DNA of 64,000 nt, taken from Octopus vulgaris (taxonomy: Eukaryota). The stretch lies in NCBI GenBank assembly GCA_951406725.2, contig OX597820.1, positions 36,766,001 to 36,830,000 on the forward strand, written 5' to 3'. The notes under the pieces were generated by a model that made no database searches, was not told the origin of the DNA, and saw nothing but the letters and a program-made list of their open reading frames with translations. Position numbers and translations under genes: made by a program. Below, one piece after another: positions 7,631 through 62,710 of this stretch; position 1 is the first letter of the stretch; the number at the start of each line of letters is the position of its first letter.

Positions 7631-7652
7631 AATAAGCCATACTTTCGTAAAA
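7631..7652 (-). promoter_or_regulatory. Conserved upstream motif of ZF1
   Basis: aataagccatactttcgtaaaa, the same motif as upstream of the other paralogs. Confidence 0.65.
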
Positions 7653-7694
7653 CTAATTCTGCATAACTACAGATTTCGGCGGAGGTAAAGGACA

Positions 7695-8480
7695 AGCACT
7701 GCACCCCATTTCGGTTTTTTTTTTTTCCTACAGAAACCCACTTTTTCGACTGCGGAGATTTCAAATCTGCAAAAAAAAAAAAAAAAAATTGGTGAAAGAC
7801 TTCCACCCCTCCATGTTCTCGCAAATTATTGGGTTTTTTCCCCAAAAAACAACTACGTTTTCGGATACGGAGATTCCGGAAAATTGCCAAAAAACGGAAT
7901 TTTGAAATTTCTGCCCCCCGCCCTAATTTCTTCATTTTTTTCTGTAATGCTAACCCTAACTCTAACACCCTAAAACCCTAACCCTAACCCTAGGTAGAAA
8001 AATCTTTTGAAAATTTTTTCAGAATCATAATATCCGTATTTTTCCGCATATTTTGACAAAAACAATTTCTGAAAAAAATTTTGGAAATCTTTTTCAGAAT
8101 CATAATCTCCGTATTTTTACGCATATTTAGAAAAAAAAATTTCTGAAAAAAGTTTAAAAGGAAGAAATTAGGTGGGTAATTTCAAAATAACGATTTTTGC
8201 CAATTTTTTTGGAGATTCGTATTCTCCGTAGCCGAAAACGGTGGTTTATGTAGAAGAAATATTTAAAAAAAAAAAAAAAAAGGGCTGTTCTTTGGGGGGG
8301 GGGGGACAAAAGGAAGTCTTGCCAAATTGGGTTTTTCAAAATTTTACCCCCTTTCCCCAATTTTTCACTTTTTTTAAAAAGAAATTTTGGTCAATATAAA
8401 GATCCTCACCCGGGAACAAAAAAATAAAAAATTAACCAGCCTGGTGGGTGTTAACAAGTGTGTGGAAAACGAATATGAAA
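7695..8480. repeat. Unclassified repeat with internal inverted repeats and a telomere-like (TAACCC)n tract
   Basis: 7727-7790 is inverted relative to 8190-8253. There is a taaccc tract at 7951-7992 and a direct repeat near 8005-8150. A related copy lies at 21120-21370. Confidence 0.6.
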
Positions 8481-8595
8481 AAATAAAAATGCTCGCTGAT
8501 GACCCTGGAGATGGGGAGGGGACTTTCGGAAAATTCACAAGATCTGATTTTTCCGTCATAAATTCGGATAAACTGGATATATATATACTCTTTAC

Positions 8596-8987
8596 TCTTT
8601 TACTTGTTTCAGTCATTTGACTGCGGCCATGCTGGAGCACCGCCTTTAGTTGAGCAAATCGACCCCAGGACTTATTCTTTGTAAGGCCAGTACTTATTCT
8701 ATCGGTCTCTTTTGCCGAACCGCTAAGTGACGAGGACGTAAACACACCAGCATCGGTTGTCAAGCAATGCTAGGGGGACAAACACAGACACACAAACACA
8801 CGCATACATATATATACATATATACGACAGGCTTCTTTCAGTTTCCGTCTACCAAATCCACTCAAAAGGCTTTGGTCGGCCCGGGGCTATAGCAGAAGAC
8901 ACTTGCCCAAGGTGCCACGCAGTGGGACTGAACCTGGAACCATGTGGTTGGTAAGCAAGCTACTTACCACACAGCCACTCCTGCGGC
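8596..8987 (-). mobile_element. Full-length tRNA-derived SINE (octopus-type)
   Basis: Minus-strand A box TGGCTGTGTGG and B box GGTTCAGTCCC, an internal (TA/CA)n tract, and near-identical copies elsewhere in the window. Confidence 0.9.
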
Positions 8988-10005: not shown

Positions 10006-10015
10006 TATATATATA

Positions 10016-12139: not shown

Positions 12140-13060
12140 CCTATTACAATGAGCTTTGGCAGCCAGCAGATTTAAGGGACACCACTACTTAATGCTGGGA
12201 CCTAATACCTGCAAAAGGAATTGCCACTGTAAAGTCATTTGGTTTACTCCACCCTTTTCACTCAACATCAAGACATACATGGGAAGGATATTCCTCAGAT
12301 TAGTGAACAAGCACTTCACGTAATCCCATAGATATGGATTTTTATTTAATAGAAACAACTTAAGGGTCTCTTTCAGCTGTATGTTCAGTGCTAAAAAAGA
12401 TTTCAGTGAGCACCCCTAAACCCTGCACAGAAGCAGGATGCCCCTAAGGCTGTGGTCAAGGAGGCTGAGGTGGAGTCTGGCAGTAACAGTTGTGATAGCA
12501 GCACCAACAACGTATCCAGCGGTAACAATGATTGCAGCAGCAGCAGTAAGAGCAACATTAGTAGTACATCTGGCAGCAGTTGTAGCAGTACATCTGACAG
12601 TAACAGCAACACTGGCATTGGTAGTGGTAGCAACAGCAACAACTGCAGCACCAACATCGTATCTAGCAGCAATAGCAACAGCAACAACAGCAGCTGCACC
12701 AGCAACATGTGTAGCAGTAGTGCAAGGATCCAGACACAAAGATATGTTGGGGCAACAGAGAGCCCCTTCAAGCGATGTCTAAACAACCACAGGTCTTCTT
12801 TCAGGATCCCAGAGAGGTGCAATGATATATTATTGGTCAGCTGTGTATGGCCTTTAAAAGAATAGGGGATGTCATACAATATTAAACAGTAGCTCCTGGA
12901 ACAACCTGGACCATACCTTAATGAGAGTAGATAATGTAAACCTTGCATGGCCAAGAGAGCAAGGATCCTGAAGAACTTGCTTAACCAAGAGGCCTTCTTA
13001 AACTCCAAAAGTGAAGTATTTAGTTAATGCCCTCATCAGAGGAAATTTATGTTGAAAAAC
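12140..13060 (+). mobile_element. Penelope-like element 3' fragment (GIY-YIG region), pseudogenised
   Basis: KVIWFTPPFSLNIKTYMGRIFLRLVNKHF and YVGATESPFKRCLNNHRSSF motifs, interrupted by stops and a trinucleotide-rich tract. Confidence 0.75.
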
Positions 13061-15826
13061 ATGGAATTCCCCACTATAGCTATGTAAGCTGTTCCTGTGC
13101 TTACAGCCACAACAAGTCACAACAATTTTTAATAACATCCTATTGTAGGAAATAATTATAACTATTGGACAATTTTAATTACAAAATAACTATTTACAAT
13201 GAAAAATAAGCGCTACAGATTGTGGATATTTTTTAACAATTATTTTTTGTAAAATGATTTTATCTATAAGACAATTTTAAATATAGAAATAACTTTTAAT
13301 ATAAAGTAAGTCTAACGAATTACAATTTTAAACATAGAATAATTCATAATATAAAAGACAAAAATAAAATTTCAATTCAAAAGTTTATTTTAAAAAAGAG
13401 GCATGAAGATCATTTGGGCCATACCCTTATGATTTTTCCGTGCAATGGAATCTAAATTTATTTTATAATTTTTAAGTTAATTACACCTGATAAATGTTGA
13501 AGTGCAAAATTACTAAATTCATGTGATAACAGAATTGCATTTTATCTAATAGAAGTTCATCTTCAACATTTAGATGTTTTGAACAAACATTTCCATTGAA
13601 TTGTTAAATTTGAGCTGTGTTAATATTGGATTTTATGACTGATTTAATTTCATTGTTGGAACAAGCACAACTTCAAATATGTCCGAGAGCCATGAAATAT
13701 GTATGATACTGCAAAACTAAAATGCAGTGACACCATCATGCACTTCTAGATTGAACTGTGAAACTGCTTCAGCGGCTTGGATACTCTTTAACAAACTGAG
13801 TCCAAGGCTGAAAACCAGTAGCACAATTTTAAGCATCACATGTAAAGATTAATAACTCAAGAATTCAGGTTTACCAGGAACAAGCAAAAAGATTGGACAT
13901 AAGACTGCACTACAGAATTCATTGAGAGTTATAATTGTGCTTGGACACCATTAACTATCAAGTACTCAAAAGACAAACAATTCATTTTGCCTATGCTGGT
14001 GACAATGAATACTGTTGCTCTGGACATGAAACAGGTAGCTCCTGTTGAGGACTCATGAAAACTGAACCAACTTAAGTCAACTGTGAAGGGCTACCTATCA
14101 ACAAAAAAAAAAAATTCTTGGTATTCAAGGCGTAATTATTTTGAATTTTGAAGAAACATCACAGTCAATGATGTGACCATTTTATGACCCTACTCAACTA
14201 TGATTTGTTCATAGATACTACTCCTCACATATTATGAGTGCCTAAAATATAAAGGTGTGCAAATCTAACCACAAACTGAAGAACAAAGCCCCAGGTGTAG
14301 ATGGTTTGTCTGGCAAAATCCTCACAAATTATTTCAATGTCTTGTTTTCCTGGTTGTACAGTGTAATCACCTGCATCTAGGAACAGGAGACTTAAAATCT
14401 CTCCAACAAGACTGGAGTGACACAAGTCTCCTCTCTTTCTTTAAGAAGTATGATACATATTCTTGCAACAATTAATGAGGCATCGCAGCCAAGATATTCA
14501 CTGTCATTCTACGACAAAATTTCTCCATGAGCATCAACACAGAGCACAAAATCAGTACAAAAATCTTTGCTGATGCTCCATGTTTTGGATTTTGTGTCAA
14601 ATTCTGTTTGTTGTCATTGATAGAGTGATTCTTTTCAACAGCTCTTGCTCAAAAGATACCTCCCTGGGTTTTGGTAATGCATTCTGCTGTTGACAAAACA
14701 AAGTCATTTCTGATGTTACACCAGAGTCCTTCCCAGAATGACTTAAATGGTAAGGTAGACAGCTAAAAAGAGAATTAGTATGATCAAACTGGATCTTGAA
14801 TCAATGTATAGCATCTGCCATTAGAATCATGACTGGCATCAGGCATATGTGATTACATAGCATGGTCAGCTTCTGTGGATTCAGTTTCAGTTTTAACAAT
14901 ATATATATATATGTTTGTGTCTCCTTGTCATTAACATTGCATATTTGTAAATGAGTGTCAGTCATTTCCCTATTCAGCAAAAAACTTATAAGGCCATGGA
15001 AAAATATTACTTTGCTTGGAAATAAATGAGGGTTGGTGACAGGAAGGACATCTGGCCATCATAAGAATGCCTCAACAAACTCATGCAAACATGCACATTA
15101 AAAATGATAACAATGATGATCTATAATAGTTTAAATGCAGTCATCTGCAAGGGAACTCTTTTCAATTAAGACCTGACTTTTAAAGTAAATCACCCTTCCA
15201 GCTACACAAACTTACTATACTATAAATAACTGATAAAAGATATACATTGTAGATTATTGCAACTTCAATTTAAAGTCACAAAAGTAATTCCGTTACGAAA
15301 CACAACTATTGTCAGCTCATAACATTTTAATAGTGACAGATATCAGTGTAAGCAGATAAAATATTAAAATTTAATTATAAAATACATCAACTTTATTTGT
15401 TATTTAAATAAATGATCCCATTTATACATGTAAATCTATATACACTTCTTTAATCATGCTGAAGAATGTTCTGGAAATTCTCCAGATTGTGTTGGAGAGA
15501 GAAAAAAAAGAAAGTATAGTTTGTAAACATTGCAAATCAGTAAAATTATTTTTTTATTAATCAGTGAATGAAAAATTTTATTGAAAATTTTCTTAACTAT
15601 GTAAAATATTTGGGTGATATATAAAACAAATTTTTAGAAAATTAACAGTTAATAAAAATTACAACACACTGATTTATAACTTTTTGCAAATGTTACAAAA
15701 TATTCTTAAATAATTCAAGTAATATTATATAAACATGTCTTTCGTTAATTTTCTGTGATGTTCTTCAAACATTCATGGTATTAATTCCATTATGTCATAA
15801 AGTAATAATTTTACAAATTCTTTTAA

Positions 15827-17089
15827 TTATTTCCCTTGTTTTACAGTCTGTTTTTCATGTACTTTTTGTTTGTGATTAGTCAAAATTTTATTCTTAGAGA
15901 AAGTCCTACCACAGATGTTGCAGCGATATGGTTGCTCACCAGTGTGAACAGGTCTGTGGCGAGTTAAATGCTGATTATCATAAAATGTTTTACCACAAAT
16001 ATCACAACTGTATGGTCTCTCACCTGTGTGACCACGTACATGAATCTTTAAATGTGTATTCTGAGAGAATGTTTTACCACAGATATCACAGTGGTATGGT
16101 TTCTCACCAGTGTGAACCCGTACATGTTGAGTTAAATGAACATTCTGAGAGAATGTTTTACCACAGGTTTTACAGTGGTATGGTCTTTCACCTGTGTGGA
16201 TGCGTATATGATTAGTTAACCTACTACTACGAGTGAATGTTTTCCCACAAATATCACAGTGGTATGGTCTAATTCCTATGTGAGCTTGTTTGTGACTAGC
16301 CAAACTATAATATGCAGAGAAGGCTTTCCCACAGATATCACAATGGTATGGTTTCTCACCAGTGTGGGTACGTCTGTGGACAGTCATGTTACCTCTTCCA
16401 GAGAATGTTTTCCCACAGACATCACAACAGTGTGGCTTTTCACTTGTGTGAATGTATTTGTGAACATTTAAATTAGAACTTCGGGAGAATGTTTTACCAC
16501 ATATACCACACTGATATGGTTTCTCACCTGTATGAATACGTATGTGATGAGTTAAGCTGTCAGTCTGAGAGAATGTTTTCCCACAGATATCACAGTGATA
16601 TGGTTTCTCACCTGAGTGAATATATTTGTGTCTACTCAAATGACTTAGCTGAGTGAAACTTCTCCCACAAATATCACAGTTATATGGCTTTTCACCAGTA
16701 TGAATACGTCTATGATTAGTCAAAGTACTGCTGACAGAAAAGGTTTTGTCACAAATATCACAGTGGTGTGGTTTCTTGCTTCTGTGAATAAGTTTGTGTC
16801 TAGTCAAATATGAATTTTGAAGGAATACTTTACCACAAATTAAGCATTCAAAATCTTTTTGATCTGACTGAACACCCTTTGAGAATAAACGAGTTTTTGC
16901 AATTGCTTTGCTGTAAATTTTTTTAACCTTAAGGCTTGTAAGCAGTACATTAGACTGTGTAAATGTTTTCTTATGAATGTCAAAGGGACATGATTGCTTT
17001 TGTACATCTACATGTACCAGATTAGATATGTCATTGGATTCAGGCTGTGTTTGATCATAAACCTGGTTTTCACAAAGCTTTTCTTCCAT
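15827..17089 (-). CDS. C2H2 zinc-finger protein ZF2, 12 fingers, MEEKLCE leader
   Basis: 420-aa ORF with an ATG start, a leader of about 80 aa, then 12 canonical fingers. Confidence 0.95.
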
Positions 17090-18518
17090 AATTTTCTTCT
17101 TTCTTCAATGATATATTTAAAAAAAAGGAGATTGATTTATAATGTTCAATGAAAGGTAAGCAAATTCTATGAAACTTCTTAAATACTAAAGTTAGAATGA
17201 ATTTTCTTTTACAATAAAAGTTGAGATTTCACAAAGTCTGAAGATATCTCCTTCATAAGGAAACAATTACAAGATATTTTATTAGGACAGTTTCATTTCC
17301 TAGAGTTCAATATTGCAAACAAAAATCAGCAAATAAACAAACTCCAGTTCTCGTGATCCACTCTGATATGAAAAGACATTATAGATAAACCAAATTGAAT
17401 CTTCATGTTCTATGTCTCTGTTACAATCTATTGTGTTCTTGATATAATGATAATCTTCTGTTTTCAAAATCAAATTTCTTGATATCAGCAATTACTATTT
17501 CAGTATCTACACAAATCCTGAAGTGAAGAATATAATGATATAATGTAGAACGGACGTTATGTACAGAGAACAGACACAATAGTACAGACATACAGTGAAA
17601 ACAAATGAAAATTTTGAAGGGAAAAAAATACAGGGATAATAGATTTAGACAAGCAGAATATTTTTTATTAGTGTTAAAATATAGAAAGTTTAGAGTAATA
17701 GTATGTATAAACAGATTGATTTAAATGTCTTTATATCCACCTATCCATGCTAACAGAACCACCTCTGTTTACTACAAGAGAGCCTATATGTAATTAATGA
17801 ATGCGAGAAATAGGAGCCAAATATTCCTGGAATTATAACCTGTCTTGAAAATGAAATGTAGCTTGAGAAAAAGTGGGCTGGCGTGTTATAGAAACCTAGC
17901 TCAAACTCGCGCACTTTTATGTTGTTTCAGTGTTTTGTTTAAATAAAGGAGAAACAAATTCTTTATTTAAGGAATGTTCTGTTTTCAGAATGTCTCAAGA
18001 TAAGATTTCTAATATGGCACTTTTCCTGTCGTATCATAGAATGGTTAATACATGTTAACACAAAAACTATTTGAGGTAGTTATCGTTTTCGTCCGCACGA
18101 TCTGATTTGGTTTGAATTTCCAACATTAATGTAGTTTTACATGCTAGTCATGAAAATTACATTGTTTTTTTTTTTTTTCACACTATTTAAAAATGAAAAT
18201 GTTACAACCCTTTAAAATTCGAATTTTTTTGCTAGTTTTAGCCAATAGAGATTAAACATAAATGTAAATAACATCTCACCATTAATACATATCGCGGATT
18301 GTTACAACAAAGTTGTTTGCACGAGAAATACTAAAATATCCTGTTCAGCAATTAGCTATTGACAATAGATCAACTTACTGTTTTCCTTCCGTATTTTCAT
18401 ACTATTTGATGCAATAATATTTAGAAATGAAGTGAAATCCAACATCTTGCTCCTTCCATGAACTCAAAATCGATGACAGATCAACTTGAAATTCATTAAT
18501 ACAGAGCTGATGAATGTA

Positions 18519-18545
18519 TCATTAGCCGCCATTTCGTAAAAAAAA
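18519..18545 (-). promoter_or_regulatory. Conserved upstream motif of ZF2
   Basis: tcattagccgccatttcgtaaaaaa. Confidence 0.65.
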
Positions 18546-18644
18546 TAATCCTTATAAACTTAAATGATTGGCTTTATTGCATAACAGAGGGTTCATAGAT
18601 TGACTGTTGTTATCGAATGATTTCATTATTTAAATTTTATAAGG

Positions 18645-18790
18645 GCAATGAAATGGCAGAATCGTTCGACTGTTGGTAAAAATGCGTTGCACCATTCGTT
18701 TCGGCTCTTTAAACGTTCTGAGTTCAAGTTCCACCGACGTCAACTTAGCCTTACATCGCTCCAGGGCCGATAAAATAAAATACCAACTAA
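18645..18790 (+). mobile_element. Degenerate SINE 5' region (second family)
   Basis: tggcagaatcgtt A-box-like and gagttcaagttcc B-box-like motifs, followed by gataaaataa..tacca. Confidence 0.6.
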
Positions 18791-20041
18791 GTCTGTGTGT
18801 GTGTGTGCGTTGGTCATTCGGTAATGTCTGATTATTTTTTGCGACTGCTACTGTGTTGGGCCGTTCATATTGAATATGTGGTTCTATGTTGGCTGCTCGA
18901 CTGGCGCAAGTTAACTGCTGACTGTCTGCTTGTCTCTTGACAGTCCACCTGGTGATGGCTACTTTCCCTCTGCCGTATGTCTGACTGTATTTATAATGGT
19001 CATGACAGCTAGAAGGACAGACACACCACAGGAGTAATTTCTACCTGTGTAGGTCGCCTCCTGTCCACTTGAACCTTAAATGACACAACTCAGGTTTTAT
19101 GTCGAAGAGAAATCCATCCATCACTTTTTGACAGGACAACGAAATTTGTTTCACGCCTGTTTGGCCAGTGGTGGATCAAACGAGCGAGAATCATTAGATT
19201 CGATTTCGAATTTCAGCTCGGAAAAAGGAAGTGCTAGTTTTTACAAACTATATTAACTAATGTGTCTTTTTTAAGACAGTACGGTGTGATTTGGTTGCTT
19301 TTGCTTTTTTCTCTTAAAATGAAACATTTGGTTTTCGTTTCTGTATTTCATGTAATTCTTGATGTTTTTATATCCCGCCCCCAATCTCCACGGAAAATTT
19401 GCCGTACTTCTTCACATTCACCAGTTTCTGGATAGAACACTTTACTCCACATTCTTTCATTTAGACTTCTCTCTAAATCTTTCTTGGGCAGTCGGAGGAT
19501 GGCTGCTATCTGCCACGACATTATTTGTATGATGTCTCTCAAAGAGGGATAATGTATTTCACTAAACGCTACAGAAGCATTATTTCTTTTCACATCTTAA
19601 TATGCAACAGGACTTTCTTTCCAGCCTAATTTCTTGATCATTACAACCATAATGAAAGTTAGACACTTTCACAGATATATATTGTTCTGAAAAACTTAAA
19701 CTCCTACTTCAACTGTTGTTTATTGTAGAGCTGAGGCGATTTTCCTTTTCGACTTGCACTTTAGATTAAATACCAAAAAAATATGGATATTAGTGTCTTA
19801 CTAATGTTTTCTCAAGAAAGAAATTCAAGATTTATCTTGAGAGTTGGGAGTACTATTGAAGCTATCATCGAATCCATCAATAAAACAAATAAATCAACGG
19901 TGTAGTCCTGTGGGAACAGTGTTCCCTTACATTTTCGGAGAGGGGAAACAGTGTTACCTCACTATTGCACAGAAATCCAAGCTTAAAATTGTGTAACGTA
20001 TTGAAAATGTCCACCTTTAAAATTACTTTTGCTTCAGCTGA

Positions 20042-20083
<42 letters not shown>

Positions 20084-20094
20084 AATATCTCTTT

Positions 20095-20425
20095 GAAAAT
20101 CAAAGAAAAAGAAGATATCTATGGACAACCGCTTCGAAACCTCCAGCTTCTATATCCAGACTATGAATTCATATTCATACCAATAATTGGAGCACTAGGT
20201 TTTGTTAGTAATTGCTGGGAAAACTGGGATTTTCAGAAAGAGAAATCGACCGGCTTATTCGTACAATTGCAATCTGTAAGTGGAACAGTAAAAATATGCA
20301 AGACTTTTCTCAAGTTCCAAATGTGAATTTGCCTGTGTTAACTACATCCCAAAGAGGGAACTTTGTATCATTGTTGGAAACCGGCTCCCTTCTCAGTGGA
20401 AGATCTATAATAATTTTAAAAAAAT
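20095..20425 (+). mobile_element. R4/Dong-like (RLE-type) non-LTR retrotransposon 3' end
   Basis: EKEDIYG..LRNLQLLYPDYEFIFIPIIGALG..LGF..LQSVSGTVKICKTFLKF resembles RLE-clade C-termini; flanked by (CA)n and (GA)n. Confidence 0.65.
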
Positions 20426-21613
20426 AGAAGAAACACATACAGACAGAGAGAGAGAGAGAGAGAGAGAGAAAGTGAGTGACGGTGGGGAACGTATATTCAA
20501 TATCAAAGACGTCCACACATTCCATACACAGTCTTGATAAGCGATTGTCTTTTGAGAGACACAAGGGAACGAAGGGGCTGACAGAATTCACACACACATC
20601 CATCCATCCAGCATCTTCGCCCACCATTCCTAGGAGGGGGGTCATTGGGATAGAGTCCTCAGGTACCTCCTCCATCAGAAGCAACTATCATTAGACTTCC
20701 AGATGGATTCCCAAGTGTGACCATATGAGACGAGAGATATTATCCAACCATATCGTTCTTAGTTTACTCCAAGGTCTCCTATAGGTTGGCTTAGCTTCAA
20801 GTGTCTATCTTGCGATTATTTCCTGCGGTTTTCTGATCAAGTGTCCAGAGCTGTGACCTTTTATCGCAGGGAAATTGGGGCTCGACCTGGAGAGAGTCCT
20901 TCATCTTGGAGCTACATACCTCGCTCGGTCCTGGAACCGAAACTACAATCTTAAAATCATGAGTGCAACATCCCTAACCACTAAGCCACACACCTCTACA
21001 TTATCTAAAATGTATCTGGAAAATTTCATGAAAAAATGACTTGAAAAAGATGCATGGTAACAAGGCCGGAAAATTTAATTGTGCCAGTAGTTGGTGCAAA
21101 TTACGGCGCACATGTTGATGTAACCCGACCCCTTCCCCACTTAAAAATTATTTTTATTTTTACGGAAACCCACATTTTCGACTATGGAGATTCCGATTCT
21201 GAGAAAAAAATTGGCAAAATCGCAACTTCAAAATTTACCCCCCCCCCCACACACACACACGCATTTTTTTTATTTTTCGCTTTTTCAGAAATTTTTTTAG
21301 GCGAAATACAGAAACAAACAGAAAAATACAGAGATTATGATTCTGAAAAAAAAAAAAAAAAAAAAATTGCTGCTAATGTCGCTGGCCATTAACTGTGGCA
21401 ATGTCTTTGTTATTTATGTCTGCAGACGCATTTGAATACACCGTTCGGACTCTTATTACCTCCCCTCCCATTTTCTTTCGTTGCTAATTTCACTTTTTCT
21501 TTTCTTTGTTTCCTTGTTGAAAGAATCTAGGGGCTGCTATTTGGATGGTTGGATTCTATTTTCACTTATATTTTTCTAAAGCGAAAGATCGCTTTAATTT
21601 TTCGATAATATAG

Positions 21614-21636
21614 TTTTTTTACGAAAGAAAACTTAG
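21614..21636 (+). promoter_or_regulatory. Diverged upstream motif of ZF3, inverted with the gene
   Basis: tttttttacgaaagaaaacttag; the TTTTACGAAAG half is kept and the GGCTG half is lost. Confidence 0.45.
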
Positions 21637-22164
21637 TAATGTCTGGATAAAGATTTATCGCTTGATTTAGTCTGACAACGAATTTGTCCAAATGTTTATA
21701 ATTTCTATCAATTTCATTAGCTTCTTCTGTCCGTCAATGTTATTACGAAATGCAAAAAGAAATATTATACTAAGTGACGAGAAATTACATAAGCCTAACT
21801 ATCAACAGACTGTATTTTCGGGTATTTATTATCTTTTTTAGTTTCTTTCCCTAAACATTTGTAACTAATTTTTTTCTTTATATTTTGCCGATTCCACAAG
21901 TTTCTTTCTTACACGCACGCACACACACACACACGCACCAAAATTACTTGAGTTTAAACCATGATAATCTTCATTTTTTTTTTTGTTTCCTTTAATATGC
22001 TTCTGAACTTCAAACAGCGAGTTAGAACATACTTGGGGAATCCGTAAACTTTTATTAATCGTATAACATATCCTGAATCTCGAGAATTAGTTATTTTTAA
22101 TCCAATCCTTATGACTTGAGGGTGTTAATATAACATGGGTACGCCACACATCCACTTTACTGGC

Positions 22165-22482
22165 ACTCCGCGGATTCCGACGAGTGTTCTGGTTGATCCA
22201 ATCAATGGAACAGCCTGCTTGTGAAATGAATGTGCAAGTAGCTGAGCACTCTCCTGACACGCGTACCTTCACGTAGTTCTCAGGGAGATTCAGCGTGACA
22301 CAAAATGTTACAAAGCTGGCCGTTTGAAGCATTGGAACAACTCATTTTTTGCCACCTGAGTGAACTGGAGCAACGGGAAATAAAATGTCTTGCTCAAGGA
22401 CAGAACTTGTCGCCATGAATCGAACTCATAATCTTACGATCGTGAGCCGAATACTCTAACCACTAGGCCATGCGCCTTCACT
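22165..22482 (-). mobile_element. tRNA-derived SINE (third family)
   Basis: Minus-strand head TGGCCTAGTGGTTAGAGTA..GAGTTCGATTC (A/B boxes) and a cttgagcaagaca core. Confidence 0.7.
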
Positions 22483-23637
22483 ACACGCTCACTGGGCATT
22501 TGGGAAAGACACATAGTGCTAGTCTTACACTCACCTGTGACATGAGTCTGTTCATTAGTTTGTGTTTGAATCATGCATTAGGACTCCTTGCCAAATTCAA
22601 CATTTTTAGTTTTACCTTCATAGAATTAGAGTACATAATCTAATATATGAAAATTCCGAGACATTTCATAGCCAAACGGCACAGGCACAAATTTGCTAAT
22701 GGGACAGGACACCGGGACATATGGTATCTCTTTTTCCCCCTACGATGAAATTTATATGGAATGATTAGCATTAAGTAAGCAGGAGTTTTCTAGCCCCCCC
22801 CCCCCCCCTGCACTGCAGCAGGCCGAGTCAGTTACTAGTCTTTATAGAAAGACAAAGTCAAGCACAGCAGTGTATAAGTTGTTGGGTCTTCTATCCCTTA
22901 TGTCAGAAACAATGTCACTGACTCTGACTCAGTTTCCCCAGGCATTCCCTTTCTACCACTTTCTCCAACAAGTAGTAGTAATAATCCTTTCTAAAATAGG
23001 CTCAAGGCCTGAAATTTTACAGGAGAGGACTAGTTGACTATATTGAAACCAGTGCTCAGCTGGTACTTATTTTGTCAACTCCAAATGATGAAAAGTAGTA
23101 GTAATAATGACAGCACAGATATAGATGGCAATTCCATCCTCATATAAGTCCACCACACTATTCTAGATTACCTAAGCCCAGTAAGCCTGTGTTATATTTT
23201 TTGTTACTTTTTTATTATTTATTGATTGTATGTTAATAAACTTCATTGTAAATATTATTCTAACCATGAAACAATATTATTGAGTGTTTAAAAATTGTTT
23301 GTAGGTGATATTAGGGAGACAATTTTGTGATCATGCAATGAAACCTATTTTTTTGACATATTCTATTATTAATTTATCACGGATTCATTTAACATATTCT
23401 TTTTTTAAAACCAAACCCCCATGATAAACAAGGATAGACATGCATATATGTGTGTGTATGTTCTGTGTGTGCACACACAAATACAATAGGTTTCAATTTC
23501 TGTCTACCAAATTAACTTACTAAGCTTCAGATGGCCTGGAGCTATAGCAGAAGACGCTCATGTGAGATGCAGTGAGATTGAACTTATAGATGGTGGATTG
23601 GTCCATTTAATGCGACTCACTCAGAAGGCTATAATAT

Positions 23638-24887
23638 TGTTACGGAACGGAGCGGAATCGCCCGTCGTCGCTCGTCCCGAACGGCTCACACACTAGTTCC
23701 GCCACGGAGCCCAAAGAGGCGGAGAGAGGAGATACAGATACAACAACCACCACAACCTCAACAGCACAGAGATACAGAGGCACAACCCGAGATACAACCC
23801 AAAGAGGCACAGAGGCAACAGAGACACTGGCTTATATTCAACAACTACTAGTTTATATGACAATCAATTGCTACACATCAAATACATTTAAGGCAAACAA
23901 CAAATCAATACATCATACGGGTATACCACAGATCAATGCATTTAACAACATCATGTAACAATATATCAGTCCGGAGACACAACAAGTCATATACAGTATT
24001 TCAAAGGTACACGTCCGAAGACACAGTTCTTTTAAAGTCTTTTCTAAACATCACAGATAATGTCACATCAACACAATTCTGAACATGAATACCACAACTC
24101 GATAATCGACATATCGACAAGTCCTTGACTGTTCTTTTCACTGTTCAATACATCGTGACACGTATCAATGCACAAACACATACCTCAATTCCTAATTGAA
24201 TCTGCCAGTGTCCCATTCCTCTCAATCCTGCCAATTCCTCTGAATACTGCCAAATCCTTCTGTACATATCCCTTCTGCATATTCCAATCGCCTGCTCTTC
24301 AAATCCCAAGATCCCTGCTGATCTGTCCAAGATCCGTCTGTGTTCTTCCACGACCAACTACCAACTGCCCAGATCCGTCCTTCCTGACGACCAACTGCGA
24401 ACTGCCCTTCTTGACGACCAACTACGAACTGCCCTTCTTGACGACCAACTACGAACTGCCCAGATCCGTCCTTCCTGACAACCAACTGCGAACTGCCCTT
24501 CTTGACGACCAACTACGAACTGCCCTTCTTGACGACCAACTACCAACTGCCAAGACCTCACTTCGTCTCTGTGCTTCCTCCACTCCCTCATCTCCCTCTG
24601 TTCTACCACCTATAGTCTTTCTATTTGCTATCTGATTCCTTACTCTATCTATATCGCCTACTGTCCCTTAGTCTTATACTCTATCTCTCTCATGACAGCT
24701 CTACCAAACTCTCTGCCTGTCCTTCTCTCCTACTGTCAATACCCTCTCCATCTGCTCTTAGATTCCCTTAATCTGTCTTCCTCTTTCACATTCTTCACTG
24801 ACCCTTAATTCACCTGAATCTGACAGGACAATGGGTTTATCCTAAAGTAGGTCATTGGGACATACTACACTAGCTAACCCCGTAACA
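23638..24887. mobile_element. Solo LTR (Gypsy-like), 1250 bp
   Basis: TGTTACGG...CCGTAACA inverted termini, 4-bp TSD atat, and an internal minisatellite. Confidence 0.85.
24350..24550. repeat. Minisatellite within the LTR (acgaccaactacgaactgcccttcttg-type units)
   Basis: About 6-7 imperfect tandem units in two length variants. Confidence 0.9.
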
Positions 24888-44642: not shown

Positions 44643-47242
44643 CGTTTTTTTTAAAAATTATTTTCCACAATAATAATCAGTATATTGATGCAGGAAACAC
44701 TGTACATAAAATTCAATTTCTATATAATCTAAATATAAAGACTGTTACATTTCGATCAACCATAACATTTATTTTACTAAAATTGATAAACAATATAGTC
44801 AAGGTGTACATAATAACTTAGTTATCTTTAAAATTCTCCAGTATGAAGAAAAATCGATATCAGTTAATGACTTAAGTTATTTTCGTTTTACATGTAAGCA
44901 CAGGAAACTGACGATACGAAAGAAGTTGTATAAGAAACATTTAACATTAAAAACTCTTTATATACTTATTGCCAACTTTTGGTTTTATTCTCAAGGAATT
45001 TGCTGTTGAAAATATCATTCATCTGACCCACTGACTCGCATTCCAACCCCACATTTGATAATTGACTTCTATCTTCAACAGTTACAAAATGTCACTATAA
45101 TTTTATTGTGAATTATAAAAAATTTGCTCAAATAGTTATTCTATTTTAAGCTAGAAGTGAACTAACAGAAGCTTACACAGCACACAGGTAGTGAGACATT
45201 TTAGTGAGCAGAGGTGATGGATATATGCTTATTAGAATAGAAGCTGGTATGCCTGCAACAGATGAACGCAATGAATTGTGCGTGTTTAAGAGTTCTCACC
45301 CTTCCCCGTTTTGAGAGTAATTTTCATTAATGTTGATGACTTTCGTTTTCATTCGGATTTATTATTCCACATGATTAAAAATTTAGTTTTTTTACATGAA
45401 ATATGGTATTCTGCACTAAAAGAATAGTGTTAGCAAAAGTGTGTATTGGAAATGATTTCAATATTGAATTTAATTTGTAGATGAATTTTAATACGGTACC
45501 TTCCTCCTCTTCTTTTATAACACATAAAGCAGAAAGTCCTTCCATATGCTGTTGATGTTGCCACTGAAGATTATAAGTGAAAGCAGAAAGAGAATCATGG
45601 AGGTCAACATTGTAGGCCAATCTTCTACCTTATTTCATAGGGTTTCGAGTTTAATCTCACTACATGTCATCTTGGATAAGCATCTTAACTTTGGAATGAC
45701 CAAAACCTTCATCATCATAATTATCATCGTTATAAGTTTGTTTTCCAAGCTGGCGTAGACGAGATGACTCAACAGAAATCAATGAGTCAGAGAACTGTCC
45801 TAAGCTGTAATGTCTGATTTAGTGTGGTTTCAATGGTTGTATACCCTTCCTAATGCCATCTACTTTATAGAGTGTACAGGATACTTTTTTTATAGCACTG
45901 GCACTAATGATGTTACCAAGTAACTCATAATACAAGACCCCTCAACTGAGCAAGGAGGGAATTAAAGGCATGATAGAGGGAAAGGAACAAATATCACGCT
46001 GCAGAGTAGAGAAATGGTTTCCCCAGCTGGGGTAGAGAGAGTGAGAGAGAGATGAGTGATATTTTGGTCAATGGATACTGCATAGAAGCTTATCAAAGGG
46101 ACCATTTCAGTTCTAGAATTGTAGACTTAATCTGTCATCTAGTTAAACATCACCATATAGATTTTGAATGCTTTTAGTGGAGAATCACTTTATAGTAAAC
46201 ATTCAGATCAGGTCTCTTGTCTTCAGATAACTTTCCCCTACACAAACCAGTTTTAGAGCTACTGGGAAAAATGATGGATACTGTCTCTTCACCTAAAGAT
46301 TAAGTAATAAAAATGCTGTAAAGTGAGTGGCTGATTGACAGGAAATGAGATGAATCAGATGTCAACAGCTGTATCTGAATTGAAGTCTGAACAACTTGTA
46401 TAAAAATATGATGCCTGATAATGAAACACAATTGTTAAATATGGAAGATTCACTGCATCTAATGTGTGATCTGTTAGAGGTGCAAATTAGTTGAGCATTA
46501 AAAATATAAACTAGACTTTTGAAACATTAGAATGAAGTGGTTAAATGTGAGGTGATTAAATTTCACAAATCAATTGACATACAATTATAAAAAAACTAGC
46601 TTAAAAACCACTCTCCATGCGGACTTTTAATCTAGCTCCAGCAGAGGGCCAATTGGGCTTGCAACCCAAAACTAAAGAGAGCTAAATAACATGACTATAT
46701 GTCGTAGTGGTGTTTGATTAGAGATTAAGGATGGATGAGAATTAATTCTGTAATGTAGTCATTCTATTGTTCCAGTTGCAAGTTGAATTACAGCCACTGA
46801 CCAATTTGTCCCAAAGTTCTTATCTTAACATAAAATTAACGAAGTAAATGTCATTTATGAAGGTGGTGTGAATCATCCAAGCTTTACCTGCTAGAAATAG
46901 CAACCCAAATGCTTTTAAATCAGATCCTAATGTTGGGTGTTCAAGAACCAAACGAAGGGCAGATTTTCAATCCCAGGATCATCCTGATTCCAAAGAGATA
47001 TAATATGTCTATGTAGAGCAAATGTAGACTGAGATACAAGGATCCCAGAGACAAAATTTTGCTTTTATTAATATAGACATAAAAGATATGTCCAACTCAT
47101 GCCAACCTGGCAGAAAAGAAAATGATACTGCTACTGCTATCTGATTATTTTTTATATATTTCTTTATATGTCAATTCTGTCTGTTTGTCTCTCTTTACCT
47201 GCCTGCCTACCTACCTACCTGTAAGGCCCAAAATATCTATAC

Positions 47243-50279: not shown

Positions 50280-51524
50280 TTATCCATGTGCCTTTTCTTT
50301 ATGATGAGTCAAGCTCCTACTCTCAGAGTAAGTTTTACCACAAATATCACAATGATATGGTTTTACACCAGTGTGAACAGGTTTGTGACGGTTTAAATTT
50401 TGATTATCAGCATATGATTTACCACAAATATCACAGCTGTATGGTCTTTCACCTGTGTGACCACGTACATGAAGTGTTAAATGACCTTTTTGAGAGAAGG
50501 ATTTACCACAGATATCACAATGAAATGGATTTTCACCAGTGTGAACACGCACATGTTGAATTAAATGACCATTCTGAGAGAATGTTTTCCCACAGATATC
50601 ACAGTGGTATGGTTTCTCACCTGTATGCATACGCATATGCTTAGTTAATCCGCTACTGGCAGAGAATGTTTTGCCACAGATATCACAGGGGTATGGTTTC
50701 TCACCTGTGTGAATACGTACATGTTGAGTTAAATGACCATTCAGAGAGAATGTTTTGCCACAAATTTCACAATGATACGGGTTGTCACCTGTGTGCACAC
50801 GTACATGCCTAGTTAATGTACTATTGTTTGAGAATGTTTTTCCACAGGTATCACAGCAGTATGGGTTGTCACCTGTGTGCATGCGTAGGTGTCTAGATAA
50901 TATACTATTGTTTGAGAATGTTTTTCCACAGATATCACAATAAAATGGTTTATCTCCTGTGTGAACTTGTTTGTGATTAGTTAACTTATTACACACAGAG
51001 AAGGTTTCACCACAAATATCACAATGATATGGTTTTTCACCTGTGTGAATACGTTTGTGAACAGTCAAATTACTTCTAACAGAGAATGTTTTCCCACATT
51101 CATCACAATGAAATGGATTCTCACCTGTGTGAATACGTATATGTTGAGTTAGATGACCGTTCTGAGAGAATGTTTTCCCACAGGTGTCACAGTGGTATGG
51201 TTTCTCTCCTGTATGCATGCGTATGTGTTTAGTTAATCCACTTCTATCAGTGAATCTTTTTCCACAAATATCACAGTGGTATGGTTTTTCCCCAGTGTGC
51301 ATACGTATGTGTGTGGTTAATCTGCTACTTTCAGAGAATGTTTTACCACAGATATCACAGTGATATGGGTTGTCACCAGTGTGCACACGTACATGTTTAC
51401 TTAATGCGCTATTGCCAGAGAATGTTTTCCCACAGACATCACAGTGGAATGGTTTCTCAACCATATGAGTACCTTTGTTATTAGTCATACTATTTCTTTT
51501 GAGGAATGTTTTTTCCAGAGACAT
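50280..51524 (-). CDS. C2H2 zinc-finger protein ZF6, 14 fingers, leaderless
   Basis: Open frame with 14 intact fingers. The first ATG is at 51524; the track start at 51527 is GTG. Confidence 0.88.
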   Translation of the reverse strand: MSLEKTFLKRNSMTNNKGTHMVEKPFHCDVCGKTFSGNSALSKHVRVHTGDNPYHCDICGKTFSESSRLTTHIRMHTGEKPYHCDICGKRFTDRSGLTKHIRMHTGEKPYHCDTCGKTFSQNGHLTQHIRIHTGENPFHCDECGKTFSVRSNLTVHKRIHTGEKPYHCDICGETFSVCNKLTNHKQVHTGDKPFYCDICGKTFSNNSILSRHLRMHTGDNPYCCDTCGKTFSNNSTLTRHVRVHTGDNPYHCEICGKTFSLNGHLTQHVRIHTGEKPYPCDICGKTFSASSGLTKHMRMHTGEKPYHCDICGKTFSQNGHLIQHVRVHTGENPFHCDICGKSFSQKGHLTLHVRGHTGERPYSCDICGKSYADNQNLNRHKPVHTGVKPYHCDICGKTYSESRSLTHHKEKAHG

Positions 51525-51830
51525 CACAGGAATATAATATTTTTATAGATGTAGTTTCAATTTCACAGGAACTTAACCAATGTCATAAAAACAATTAATC
51601 AAATGATTAAAAAACAGTTCTTGATAATGTCAGTCTTCTGTCTTTAAAATCAGACAAATTTCTTGGTAGCTCTTGAATCAGCAATCCCCATCTCAATGTT
51701 AACACAGACACTAAAGTAAAAAACAATGAAAAATAAAGAACATGAAAATAAATTACGAAAAAAAAAGAACAAGAAAATAAAGTAAAAAAACAATGAAAAG
51801 TTAACATAGAGGTTATTTAACTGAAGAGAT

Positions 51831-53633: not shown

Positions 53634-53984
53634 AACAAATACTGGAATGTCACCATGCATAATGTTTACTAAATAGTTTCTAAAATTGAATATTGCTAAT
53701 GTTTACATTTAAACAGATTAAACCTGAACGTAAATAGCATCACACTATCAATACATCATATTGTGGATTGTTACAAGAGACGTTTCCATTAGAAATAATT
53801 AGCTACTGAAAACACATCAACTTGCTGGTTTTTAATCTCTTTCTCATTATTTGGTGTTATAAAATTGAGAGATAATTTGATCTATGGATATATACAGACA
53901 TAATATACTTACTATCTGTCCAATAAACCATCTTTACTGATTCACAGAACCCAAGTGATATACTTCCATGCAGACTTAATCAAA

Positions 53985-54008
53985 TCTTCAGCCGTATTTT
54001 CGTAAAAA
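53985..54008 (-). promoter_or_regulatory. Conserved upstream motif of ZF6
   Basis: tcttcagccgtattttcgtaaaaa. Confidence 0.7.
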
Positions 54009-55809: not shown

Positions 55810-55855
<46 letters not shown>

Positions 55856-56026: not shown

Positions 56027-56044
56027 ATAAAAAAACAACAACAA

Positions 56045-57500: not shown

Positions 57501-59563
57501 TGAATCCTGAAAATGATTCAGAAATCAGCATTTTGTTATCAATGAAGCTGGTATTTGCCATTTATTAAGATCTTTCACATCATGGTATCTTGTAAATATA
57601 CTGTAAATATTCCAAGTTAGACATCATTGACATTAACAGCCATCAGTATGTTCATGAACATACTGATTGCTATTGTATTTTGTCTACTGAGAACAACTTC
57701 TTTCAAACAATGTATGTTCACTAGTTATTTCATCGCTTCATTCCTCAATAATACTTTTGTGTATTTTGAAGAAGGCTGATTTGTTGTAAACAGTTTACTT
57801 TACTTGAAACAAGATATTTTGCAGATTATTGCATTCAAAAACTATGGAAAGAGAAGCAGAGTCATGATTACAAAAAAATATGGAAATAGAATTATCTATT
57901 TGGACCAGGGGCAATGTAGTCTAGGTTGCAATCCAAAGAATCAATAAACACCTGAAACGATTTTAAGCATTAAAGGTGCTGAATTATTAGCAAATTATAT
58001 CTAGAAAAGCATAATAATTTAAGGTTAAAGCTCTCTAATTTCCAGCTAAATATCAATGCAATAACTACTAGTATTCATCAAACACATATTTCACAGTATA
58101 CATCCCATCTATATCAATATAATATGATTGAATTTTTATTTTTCAATTTTGTTGAGTATTTTCATGAAATATTTATTAAAAATGGGTAATAGCACAAAAG
58201 GGAGGAAGGAATTATTGTTTTTAAATCAAGTTTTTATTAATTATACTTACAAATTCACATGAAGGGGTCAATAAGTTATCAACTATTCAATGAAGGGATC
58301 AATGAAATAAGTTTGCTGACCCCTAATTTAGACAGAGGATTATAACATAATAGAATACATGAGAGTATTAAAATATAACATGCTACAGTTCAGTGACTAG
58401 TTGTATAGTGAAAGCAGGACTCATTCTAAGTATACATCGACAGTAGGTGTGATATCTACAAAGCAGGTCAAAGGTGACAGACTTGTGAACACAAATATAA
58501 GCATTCCAGTGGTTCACTGAAATTAATGGAGTAGGACAATTTTAGAAGGTAGCTATATGACCAAACTGGAGCCAAATGGTCAAAGATAGACAATTATGGG
58601 TTGGGGCTGAGAGGTGTTTAAGTTAGATCGATAAGTACCTTAATAATGATCATACATACCGTGTCAATTTGGACATACTTTCCTCCCCAATGACAATGTA
58701 GTTCACATGGACATACCCTTTAACACTTATAACATTTAAATACTTCAACTTCATCAATCATATTCTGATAGCAACAGTAATGTAACATGCATTCTTCTGT
58801 GTCACACTTTTACTTTCTACCCTTAAATGGGTAACTTAGCTTTTCAAACTTCATCCTCCTATTCAACTATTGTATACTGCTTTGCTCCAAGTCCTGCTCT
58901 AACTGTACAATTAGTCACTTCTAACATGTTACAATTTGACAATATCCAGTCCTCTATGATGCTACAAGTCAAAATTATATCTCTCAAATCCCATTGAGAG
59001 ATATTTGTCAGCACATCTAGATTTTCTTTCTCCATTTGTGTCTCTGCTTTTCATATTATTTAACATTCTGCATGCAATAATCAACAGGTCAGAGTGTTTC
59101 AATTAAAGTTAACAGTTTACAGCAAATCATCCTACTTCTAAATACACAAACTTATTCTTGCAGAAACAAATGATGAAATAGTTTTTGTAGATTATCAAAA
59201 CTTTAATTAAAAGACAAAGAAATACATCAGTCACAAAATAGAACAATTCATAGCATTAAAATGATGACAAATGTCTGTGTAAGCAAACTAGATACTAAAG
59301 TTAATCCAAAATGAATCATTGAAAAATGTAATAACCATGTAGTGGAGAGATTCATACATTCATATGAACTTTTATTATAAAACTATGCACTGCTTCTTAT
59401 TTACAATTACCTTCCATGCTTCAGTTCTATCATCATGTAGAATGTGTAAGAAAAAAGAAAATCTCCAGATTATATTTGTCCATTTTCCAAAAAATTCCTT
59501 TGTATTATCTGTCCCATAGAAATTCCCTTTTGCCTTCATGAGGTAACAGTTCATAAAACTTCT

Positions 59564-60292
59564 TCAGATTAATTCTTTTATTGCTTGCTGTCCATGTGCC
59601 TTTTTTTTATGATTAGTCAAACTCCTATTCTCAGAGTAAGTTTTACCACAAATATCACAATGATACGGTTTTACACCTGTGTGAACAGGTTTGTGACGAT
59701 TTAAATTCTGATTGTCAGCATATGATTTACCACAAATATCACAAGTGTATGGTCTTTCACCTGTGTGACCACGTACATGGAGTGTTAAATGACCTTTCTG
59801 AGAGAAGGATTTACCACAGGTATCACAGCGAAATGGATTCTCACCTGTGTGAATACGTACATGTTGAATTAAATGACCATTCTGAGTGAATGTTTTATCA
59901 CATATATCACAGTGATATGGTTTCTCACCTGTGTGGATGCGTACATGTTGAGTTAAATGAGTATTCACCGAGAATGTTTTCCCACAGATTTCACAGTGGT
60001 ATGGATTGTCACCTGTGTGCATGCGTATGTGTCTAGATAAATTACTCTTGCCAGAGAATCTTTTTCCACAAATATCACAGTGGTATGGTTTCTCACCTGT
60101 GTGCATGCGGATGTGCTGAGTTAATCTATTACTGACACAGAATCTTTTACCACAGATATCACAGTGGTATGGGTTATCACCAGTATGTATGCGTATGTGT
60201 CTAGTTAATGCACTACTGCCAGAGAATGTTTTCCCACAGATATCACAATAGTATGGATTCTCACTACCCTGAGCACCTCTGTGATTAGTCAT
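59564..60292 (-). CDS. C2H2 zinc-finger protein ZF7, 8 fingers, N-terminally truncated; sister of ZF6
   Basis: 242-aa ORF with 8 intact fingers. Its C-terminal four fingers are nearly identical to those of ZF6. Confidence 0.85.
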   Translation of the reverse strand: MTNHRGAQGSENPYYCDICGKTFSGSSALTRHIRIHTGDNPYHCDICGKRFCVSNRLTQHIRMHTGEKPYHCDICGKRFSGKSNLSRHIRMHTGDNPYHCEICGKTFSVNTHLTQHVRIHTGEKPYHCDICDKTFTQNGHLIQHVRIHTGENPFRCDTCGKSFSQKGHLTLHVRGHTGERPYTCDICGKSYADNQNLNRHKPVHTGVKPYHCDICGKTYSENRSLTNHKKKAHGQQAIKELI

Positions 60293-60890
60293 GTTACCTC
60301 TTCAAAAAAATGTTTCCCTACAAGTATTAAAATAGCATGGCTTTTCACTTGTGTAAATAGGATTGTGTCTATTAAATGGATATTCTAAAATATGCTTACT
60401 ACAAATACCATTTTCATACAGTCCTGTGTGGATCTTTTGCCAAACATTAATTTATCAAATGCAGCAAATATTTTTCCACAGATATTGCAATGATATGGTT
60501 TCTCACATAAATGAATATATTTGTGTGTAGTCAAATGACTTTGCTAAGAGGTTACTCTCCACAAATATCAAAACAGTATAACTTTTCACCAGTATGGATA
60601 TGGTTATGCTTGGTCAAATTACTGATGTAGGATAAAGTTTTACAAAAAATTATGCCCTGATAAAATTTCTTATCATTCTGGACATCATTATGCAAGAACA
60701 AAATTTGTTTTTGGTAATTATTTAACTATTAATTTTAAAACATTTAAGCTTTTTAGCTTTTATGAAAAAAAATACTTTCTGCAATAAAGGATTAAACTAT
60801 ATAAATGTTTTTTTACTGGTATACAAGAGACAAAATTTGTATTTTTGCGTAGCAACTAGATTCTGATTTAGCTTGATCATGTTACATATC
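60293..60890 (-). pseudogene. Decayed N-terminal half (leader plus fingers 1-5) of ZF7
   Basis: Minus-strand translation gives ..HNDVQNDKKFYQGIIFCKTLSYISNLTKHNHIHTGEKLYCFDICGE* and ..TSEKPCYFNTCRETFF*RGNM, collinear with ZF4/ZF5 but with stops, frameshifts and lost cysteines. Confidence 0.85.
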
Positions 60891-62470
60891 TCTATCACAA
60901 TGTGCTTATAATCATAATTCAAACATTAAAGCAACTTCCTCAAGATTTTATAGATGTGTTACTTGTAATCTATTCTTCATAATACCAGTTTTCTTTCTTC
61001 AAAATCTGGTGAAGTTCCTTAAATATACTGAATTCCACAATACCATGTCATTGTCACCACAAAACCTGAAATATAAAACATAAGGTAAAAAGGACAATGT
61101 AAATGAAAGTTATTAGAGAAATAGGGCTTGACTAAATTGAATGAGAGAATAAAAGGGAAAGAGCAGAAAAATAATATTAAGGATATATAAAGGAAATGAC
61201 TGATGTTATGCATGGATAAGAACTTTTGAAAGGAAATAATGAGACACACAGATGTAGAAAGAAATCAAGAATTCTTTTTGTAGGAGTATACACATATAAA
61301 TAGCAAACTGTTGTCTACATAGAAGGTAGAAAAAAAAGCAATGAAAATTTAACACAAAGATTTGAAGAGAATGGGGACTAGACCAGAACAATAACAATGT
61401 TACAATAAAAAAAAAAAGAAAATACTGTGAAGGTAAGACGCAATAGTATGGACATATAGTGTGTAAATGAATGATGCATAGATGAGGTAATAAATGAAGT
61501 ATACAGATGTAGAAAAACTAATAATTTATTTATTTATTTATTTTATGTGAGTGGACTATAATATAAATAACTCGGGGACACCATCAATCTACTAAAGAAA
61601 ACATACCCATCAGAACTAGGCAATATCAATGAGTACATCTCTTTTGGACTGGATAAAACAATTTAATAACATTGGAAGTAACACACAATACAGCGATGTA
61701 CATGACATTGGGACTTTGATGGAGCGAAGCTATGAGGTGGTTACCAGGGATATAAAAGAAAGTTGGATACACACCCTCGGAATAGGGGCGGAAATCTAAT
61801 TACAAAGATTCTGTTGTTCACAATAAAATTGGATGAGAGCTAAAAGACAGTAAGGAACTTAGGGAGCATAAAATATTTTATGAGTTTTATGACAGAAGAC
61901 ATTAAAAGCAATCCACCATATATGGATGCTAAATAATGCATTTTCATTTAACATTGTCTATTAACATACATATACGAATAGATGCCTCGTCAAAACACAA
62001 AACACTTTGGAAGAACAAAACATATCGGGACTCAGAACAAACTGATATGATTGAAAAGAGATTTAATGACAACAGACAAAAAACAGGATTTGTTATTAAT
62101 TGTGACAATCTGTCACAAATGATACTTGAAAGTTACTATGCTTAATGTTTGGTAAATAGTTTCTGAAACTGAATGTCGTTAATATTTAAATTCAATCGAG
62201 TTTAAGCCTGAATGTAAATAACAACTGACTACCAATAGATCATAATATGGATTGTTACAACAGAGGCTTTTTGTACTAGAAATATTAAAATAATTAACAA
62301 CTGACAAAGCATCAACTTAATGTTTTATCTGTCTCTCAGTATTTGGGGAGATAATCATATACAAGGAGATATGTAGAGATATAATATACTCACTATATGT
62401 TCAGTCAAGAAATTCCACTGATTTCACAGAACCTTAGCGATAAACTTTAATGCAAACCTAATTCATCAAA

Positions 62471-62710
62471 TCTTCAGCCGTGTTTTCGTAAAAAAAAGAC
62501 TTTTTTTCTCATTATTTTGTGTTGTAACACCGAGTGATGGTCTGATCTGTGTATGTATATATATATATATATATAAAGAGAGAGAGAGAGAGATGATATA
62601 CTCAATTTATGTGCAGTCAACCAACTTTATTTTCACAAAATCTACGTGACATACTTTAATACCAACTTAATCCATCAAATCATCAGCCGCACTTTCGTAA
62701 AAAAAAAAAA
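62471..62710 (-). promoter_or_regulatory. Two copies of the upstream motif of ZF7
   Basis: tcttcagccgtgttttcgtaaaa at 62471 and tcatcagccgcactttcgtaaaa at 62680. Confidence 0.7.

Follow-up and report, generated by a model that had tools for sequence, protein, structure and literature searches.

A 10 bp word shared by clustered C2H2 zinc-finger genes of Octopus vulgaris, a candidate promoter-proximal site

A 64,000 bp stretch of the Octopus vulgaris genome (GenBank assembly GCA_951406725.2, contig OX597820.1, positions 36,766,001–36,830,000; here termed the window, with coordinates counted from its first base) contains seven C2H2 zinc-finger arrays, ZF1 to ZF7, of which ZF3 is on the plus strand and the other six are on the minus strand. 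All seven have a short motif 1.5–5.2 kb upstream of the start of the open reading frame (ORF), which reads TTTTACGAAA-NNNN-GGCTnA in the sense of the gene and has an invariant stretch of 10 bp only. This core is found once per C2H2 gene in seven of seven genes, with one additional copy in a 209 bp internal duplicate, and the eight copies compare with a mean of 0.23 and a maximum of 2 in 100 shuffles of the window. An earlier reading of the sequence alone (the sequence-only reading) had proposed a shared motif at every zinc-finger gene, and all of the sites that it listed are present. The element is real, constrained and apparently undescribed, although of an ordinary kind, a motif common to duplicated genes, and it has been seen in one local subfamily of seven genes. 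The motif may be a promoter-proximal site at which one sequence-specific protein binds the DNA and supports transcription from a broad start region; the chance of this is put at about even.

The plus strand has exact TTTCGTAAAA cores at 7643, 18532, 35574, 44632, 53998, 62484 and 62693, and the minus strand has one at 21617. Because six of the seven genes are encoded by the minus strand, the motif as first written is the antisense. In gene sense, sequence matches place full minus-strand copies at 7633–7652 (Z1, core 7643–7652), 18522–18541 (Z2, core 18532–18541), 44622–44641 (Z5), 53988–54007 (Z6), 62474–62493 (Z7a) and 62683–62702 (Z7b), and a further one at 35564–35583 (Z4, core 35574–35583) is inside contig X18 record 15. 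ZF7 has two copies because of a 209 bp tandem duplicate of exon 1 (62494–62702) that starts with Z7b and is 73% identical to Z7a. The plus-strand copy Z3 (21617–21626), inside the spliced contig X1 record 3, consists of the 10 bp core and has lost the second half, as anticipated by the description of an inverted, half-diverged copy at ZF3. ZF3 exon 1 also has a near-copy of the core with one mismatch, TATTACGAAA, at 21741–21750, in a segment absent from the other paralogs; the count of such near-copies is within chance.

The motif had been given a length of about 22 bp. The shared word is real, but its second half stands only modestly above the flank: in six copies, identity at positions 10–19 is 72% and that of the flank 62%, and the inclusion of Z3 lowers these values to 58% and 57%. 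Nevertheless, G14, G15, C16 and A19 are kept in seven of the eight copies and T17 in all eight, with no indel. The aligned copies show weaker constraint on the second half than on the core. As a 20-mer, the motif is found six times at two or fewer mismatches, where 0.01 is expected by chance. With a leave-one-out position weight matrix (PWM) built from the seven full copies, the left-out copies score 19.8–31.7 bits against a best background of 5.9–9.1 bits. A PWM scan of the window reveals no additional full copy, and none in the 64 kb away from C2H2 genes.

Across the seven gene-sense 5′ territories, 35 kb in total, the core is the sole 10-mer present in every one, and none was found in 30 Markov nulls. 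By contrast, the flanks (offsets 20–380) align with a mean pairwise identity of 57%, and no invariant run there is longer than two columns; when Z3 is left out, the values are 62% and three columns. In a neutral simulation on the flank tree, with blocks of 500 nt, invariant runs of 10 columns occurred in none of the 4000 HKY blocks and in 11 of 4000 under strong, gamma-distributed rate variation. The claims that the core, including its CpG, is invariant and that neighbouring sequence is more diverged therefore hold, and by alignment and simulation the motif is better conserved than its flanks.

The splice donor offers a useful comparison. The ancestral donor ACA|GTAAGT is intact in three of the seven genes (ZF1, ZF2 and ZF5), but has become GC in ZF6 and TT in Z7a, is deleted in ZF4 and is unrecognizable in ZF3, whereas the core is intact in seven of seven. 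Judged by these sequences, constraint on the core is stronger than on the splice donor. Both copies in the 73%-identical ZF7 duplicate keep the core. The CpG is also kept, though the observed/expected CpG ratio of the window is 0.44; exon-1 ratios are 1.09 and 1.49, from small counts. A 10 bp word that is better kept than a splice donor is a precise target for further work, and this type of paralog footprinting can be repeated on other clusters. It should be pointed out that the motif is also intact in ZF1, which has a broken ancestral leader (2400–2700), and in ZF7, which has degenerate front fingers with stops (60300–60716).

Paralog similarity is found in three blocks: from the motif to about 450 nt downstream, from the acceptor to the stop codon, and in about 800 nt of 3′ sequence. 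The comparison indicates that the gene units are whole-gene duplicates. Some sharing of a motif is therefore expected, and the common orientation is a by-product that is silent on function. The proposal that the motif is oriented with the gene is thus correct, the inverted ZF3 included, but it follows from paralogy, and the orientation as written was antisense. The exon-1 module of ZF1 (motif, exon 1 and proximal intron) spans 7101–7652 on the minus strand, and paralogous modules are at 18239–18548, 34992–35596, 44102–44644, 53639–54007 and 61980–62703.

Similarity ends just 5′ of the motif, in agreement with its proposed position near the 5′ edge of the duplicated unit. Upstream (−330 to −31), none of 21 pairs exceeds a z score of 1.1, including ZF6–ZF7, which are 74% identical downstream. 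Downstream (+21 to +320), 13 of the 15 pairs without Z3 have z scores of 4.8–27.5. Z3 shares little besides the core (0.5–3.2 in six pairs). The loss of similarity is due in part to repeats, which are found about 60–270 nt upstream of the Z1, Z3, Z4 and Z7b copies; ZF5 and ZF6 have several hundred upstream bases free of window repeats, yet these are unrelated. One palindromic repeat family adjoins the motif on its upstream side in both ZF1 (7716–8259, with TTAGGG runs) and ZF3 (21148–21351), and a second palindromic repeat is upstream of Z4 (35775–36800). A separate observation concerns ZF4 (32503–32893) and ZF5 (41690–42100), which are 94–98% identical around the start codon, with leaders 94% identical in protein; identity falls to 54–60% over exon 1 and to about 70% over the remaining exon-2 leader. 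This near-identical patch may represent recent gene conversion or exon shuffling.

Transcript data consist of RNA-like contigs from four of 24 runs, from four studies and none recorded as RNA, for the region 16000–35999. They cover three of the seven genes, ZF1, ZF5, ZF6 and ZF7 being outside. The contigs show neither transcription starts nor single molecules, and their depth is not copy number. In ZF3, X1 record 3 joins 21522–21820 to 25869–26587, with a GT-AG intron after a one-base shift. The core is inside exon 1, 95 nt past the start of this record, and X18 record 9 starts 61 nt before the core. In ZF4, X18 record 15 spans 35842–35432 and ends at a GTAAGG donor, with the core 259 nt inside; the AG acceptor coincides with the end of X1 record 6 and of X2 record 22, and the X1 depth at 35519, in exon 1, equals that of record 6 (7.21). 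The ZF2 acceptor is contig-supported, while an exon-1 piece is not among the rows listed.

Contigs thus cross the core in both readable genes, ZF3 and ZF4, and the motif is therefore transcribed. The motif had been described as upstream of the genes; it is upstream of the ORFs, but the contigs put it inside exon 1. The donors had been described as of GTAAGT type, and this does not agree with the contig-supported ones, which are GTAAGG 141 nt past the core in ZF4 and GTATTT 195 nt past the core in ZF3. Depth in the intergenic bin 19335–20001 is 0–1.1, which argues against evenly spread DNA contamination. A common contig end at 35842–35844, seen in three runs, was considered as a start site and rejected, as it sits in a repeated unit; it is probably an assembly break.

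How might a promoter-proximal site of this type work? Whole-gene duplication would pass the site to each C2H2 paralog, and purifying selection would retain it if the factor must bind for the gene to be transcribed. Its action would be local, on a broad start region whose beginning is at the core or tens to hundreds of bases upstream of it. The weaker GGCTnA half, at a fixed gap of 4 nt, hints at a second contact, by a multi-finger protein or by a partner. The leading named candidate, by likeness of sequence, would be a posterior-Hox/Cdx-type homeodomain. The nearest named site is the secondary motif of HOXB13, CTCGTAAAA (PMC5694663), with posterior Hox/Cdx sites as its wider class. In all eight copies of the octopus motif, TCGTAAAA agrees with eight of its nine letters, CpG included; unlike the HOXB13 motif, the octopus motif has a second half at a fixed gap. 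The HOX13-type likeness may be taken as a lead and not as a test, with Octopus Post1, Post2 and Cdx as candidates only.

Several points weigh against a promoter-proximal site. When Z3 is left out, the gamma-rate simulation yields 87 of 4000 blocks with an invariant run (0 of 4000 with HKY), although this model inflates invariant columns (0.38 vs. 0.245 observed). The location inside the transcript suits an RNA element equally well. A position-flexible site accounts less well for the abrupt loss of upstream similarity than would a duplication breakpoint or an element that defines the start. Immediately before TCGTAAAA, all eight copies have a T where the HOXB13 motif has C. In addition, paralogs of cephalopod C2H2 expansions are often in different co-expression modules (PMC12513265), and this restricts how much a single common site can control.

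The sequence-only reading took the motif to be a core promoter or transcription start element. The motif might indeed be a positional core promoter or initiator that fixes a dominant start, with upstream contigs derived from minor starts, the adjacent repeat or read-through; this is unlikely, at perhaps one chance in five. Similarity stops within about 20 nt upstream in 21 of 21 pairs, yet extends 350–450 nt into the intron, and the core-to-donor distance, 141–195 nt, is that of an exon 1. Upstream contig depth (4.4 in X1 and 3.4 in X3) resembles that of intron contigs (2.8–6.5), and the ZF4 contig ends are in the repeated unit mentioned above. On the other hand, contigs run across the motif, in ZF3 by 95 nt (X1, spliced) and 61 nt (X18) and in ZF4 by 259 nt (X18). 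Furthermore, by consensus patterns, matches to TATA, Inr, DPE, TCT, DRE and Ohler 1/7 are scattered, and none is at one fixed offset across the copies. Contigs cannot locate starts, and thus the upstream coverage weakens the start-site concept and does not refute it.

Slightly less probable, and also doubtful, is an RNA element in the 5′ leader of the family's transcripts, either recognized by an RNA-binding protein or a small RNA or serving to control translation. The motif is transcribed and is still present after splicing, and the leaders are long, with 11 ATG triplets in ZF3 and 14 in ZF4, the start codon counted. An ACG-initiated frame, T-K-x-R-L, with synonymous Leu codons, is present in six of the eight copies. 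Yet the core itself has no synonymous change in any frame, the stops range from codon 8 to codon 24, and short frames are usual here, as half of the flank positions reach a stop within nine codons. A consensus RNA fold has no pairs and Rfam gives no match at the gathering score. A fixed-gap, bipartite, CpG-bearing word would also seem more like a DNA site.

Several related ideas found no support. A palindrome forms a hairpin in single copies (Z6 and Z3) and not in the consensus. An upstream ORF shows no consistent coding signature in three frames. A likeness to YY1 (ATGGC) is found in only two of eight copies. With respect to microRNAs, five seed strings were unmatched in four text supplementary files of PMC9699675, files that may lack microRNA sequences. 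Metagenome matches to the 20 nt pattern were found at 26 loci, none of which is BLAST-similar to the window, and these are read as chance; one of the 26 has two C2H2-like pattern matches and an unrelated flank.

It is improbable, though somewhat less so than the CTCF-type arrangement considered below, that the motif has no function and is a relic of a transposon end or duplication breakpoint, or a gene-conversion patch. It does sit at the exact edge of the homologous block, after a T-run (poly-A on the opposite strand), and the 94–98% identical exon-2 patch of ZF4 and ZF5 indicates that local homogenization or exon shuffling occurs here. Neutral simulation rejects a relic, however, and conversion confined to 10 bp in every copy, the inverted one included, is implausible. 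At the 3′ ends there is neither an inverted copy nor a common boundary, and hence there are no transposon ends, and every copy in the window is at a C2H2 gene. Contigs cover the motif bins at a depth of 0.4–38, vs. 10^4–10^5 in the strongest repeat bin. A check for the motif inside a transposon family, made within the window, likewise found no copy inside a window repeat.

The promoters of vertebrate clustered protocadherins had been proposed as a parallel. Every such promoter has a conserved sequence element (CSE) with a core of about 22 bp that binds CTCF, and gene-specific sequence directly upstream (PMC3333863). The octopus motif is like the CSE in being about 20 bp, in having one copy per tandem paralog (seven of seven genes) and in being far better kept than its flanks. 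Unlike the CSE, which is in the promoter of variable exons, the octopus word is AT-rich, has no CTCF likeness and is, by the contigs, inside a non-coding exon 1. ZF3 exon 1 splices to its own coding exon, and the coding exons of ZF2 and ZF4 have their own acceptors; among the rows listed there is no shared constant exon, in contrast to the protocadherin cluster. CTCF likeness and constant exons are both lacking, and therefore the octopus motif is not filed as a CSE: the layout is alike, the mechanism is not. A CTCF-type anchor by which a shared enhancer picks one cluster promoter per cell is thus very improbable, as the similar size, the single element per paralog and the gene-specific upstream sequence that resemble the CSE and SSE (PMC3333863) are set against the lack of any sequence fitting a CTCF core pattern from −300 to +150 in eight of eight copies, the contig-supported splicing of genes to their own coding exons, the inversion of one gene together with its site, and no free-standing enhancer copy within the window. 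The protocadherins of cephalopods themselves originated through the duplication of full genes (PMC9068888).

A closer precedent in kind than the CSE is provided by the zebrafish ZNF clusters. The promoters of these clustered genes (FiNZ) are either sharp with a TATA box or broad and TATA-less, and exon 1 codes the FiNZ domain (PMC10547256). Both systems are lineage-specific tandem C2H2 expansions with two exons and promoter features common to paralogs. They differ in that FiNZ genes have a coding exon 1 and a TATA box, while the octopus genes have a non-coding exon 1, no TATA at a fixed offset and a different word. Apart from these clusters, TTACGAAA is one base off the C/EBP and PAR-bZIP palindrome (of TTACGTAA type), and the departure is invariant in all eight copies of the octopus word.

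No description of a comparable motif from cephalopods appears among the titles and abstracts listed in the literature searches. The main text of a 2025 paper on cephalopod C2H2 expansions (PMC12513265) does not contain the words promoter, upstream, motif, UTR or exon, and the word promoter is absent from PMC9068888 and PMC9795677. For squid ATAC peaks, PMC9023564 reports enrichment of known motifs only, and for annelids CAGE reveals ordinary TATA and DPE promoters (PMC7854359). C2H2 genes make up one of the largest gene expansions of cephalopods and have been linked to the nervous system (PMC9068888 and PMC12513265), and yet no regulatory sequence is given for these genes in the papers examined.

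A promoter-proximal site might also extend well beyond this cluster. Most genes of an octopus C2H2 expansion could have the word in exon 1, and one factor could switch the whole repertoire, with gene-specific and often transposon-derived upstream sequence tuning the copies. Such a family-wide master site is speculative, and a little less likely than an RNA element. Its factor might be a posterior Hox/Cdx protein, or one of the cluster's own finger proteins, which would provide feedback. If true, the master site would be a first handle on the regulation of hundreds of cephalopod zinc-finger genes. The value of the motif hinges on how far it extends and on what binds it.

The genes have a two-exon layout, with a non-coding exon 1, an intron and a single coding exon, and contigs support this in three genes. 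In ZF3 (plus strand), non-coding exon 1 is at 21522–21821, with a contig-based 5′ limit from X1 record 3, and is followed by a GT-AG intron (21822–25869) and by exon 2 (25870–27253), which has a 271 nt untranslated part and a coding sequence (CDS) at 26141–27253 for 11 fingers. In ZF4 (minus strand), non-coding exon 1 (35433–35842, also with a contig-based 5′ limit) and the intron (35432–33167) precede exon 2 (31535–33166), with a 480 nt untranslated part and a CDS at 32686–31535 for 10 fingers; here the joint is deduced from contig ends, as no row spans both pieces. For ZF2 exon 2 (15827–17517, minus strand, with a CDS at 17089–15827 for 11 fingers), X1 record 1 and X18 record 8 define the acceptor, while the donor at 18378 is predicted from the sequence. 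The leaders at 17089–17517, 25870–26141 and 32686–33166 are long and AT-rich.

The remaining arrays are all on the minus strand. The ZF1 ORF (1172–2440) has 14 fingers and a broken ancestral N-terminal leader, the ZF5 CDS (40773–41876) has 10 fingers, and the ZF6 ORF (50280–51542) has 13 fingers and no leader within the ORF. ZF7 (59564–60716) consists of seven intact fingers (59564–60301) behind degenerate fingers with stops. In six of the seven proteins (ZF1, ZF2 and ZF4–ZF7) a late, C-terminal finger has the contact residues D-Q-x-R, mostly preceded by a finger with Q-x-H-L or Q-x-H-I, while the other fingers vary. This recurring finger suggests a conserved DNA-contact module.

Protein searches place the locus in Octopus. 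A profile of the N-terminal leader found 18 proteins among 1.84 billion representatives. Of the 10 of these 18 that were examined, the best two are Octopus sinensis XP_029639418.1 and O. vulgaris CAI9725513.1, and the rest are weak generic finger matches in other animals or unnamed; XP_029639418.1 and the N-terminus of ZF3 agree in 37 of 38 residues. A search with the ZF4 leader scored none of seven candidates, and an exact look-up matched none of five window proteins. The full ZF2 protein gives generic C2H2 matches at 35–55% identity among the 120 matches listed, and an Atlas search gives generic zinc-finger clusters.

Two other features of the window are of minor interest. An inverted partial copy of a zinc-finger gene 3′ untranslated sequence is at 57726–57919 and matches 59016–59180, 613–771 and 15103–15218. 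At 12720–13050, after a serine-rich repeat, there is a degenerate frame (YVG..E..FK..L.NH..SF) that has no Pfam match and resembles the remnant of a GIY-YIG endonuclease from a Penelope-like element.

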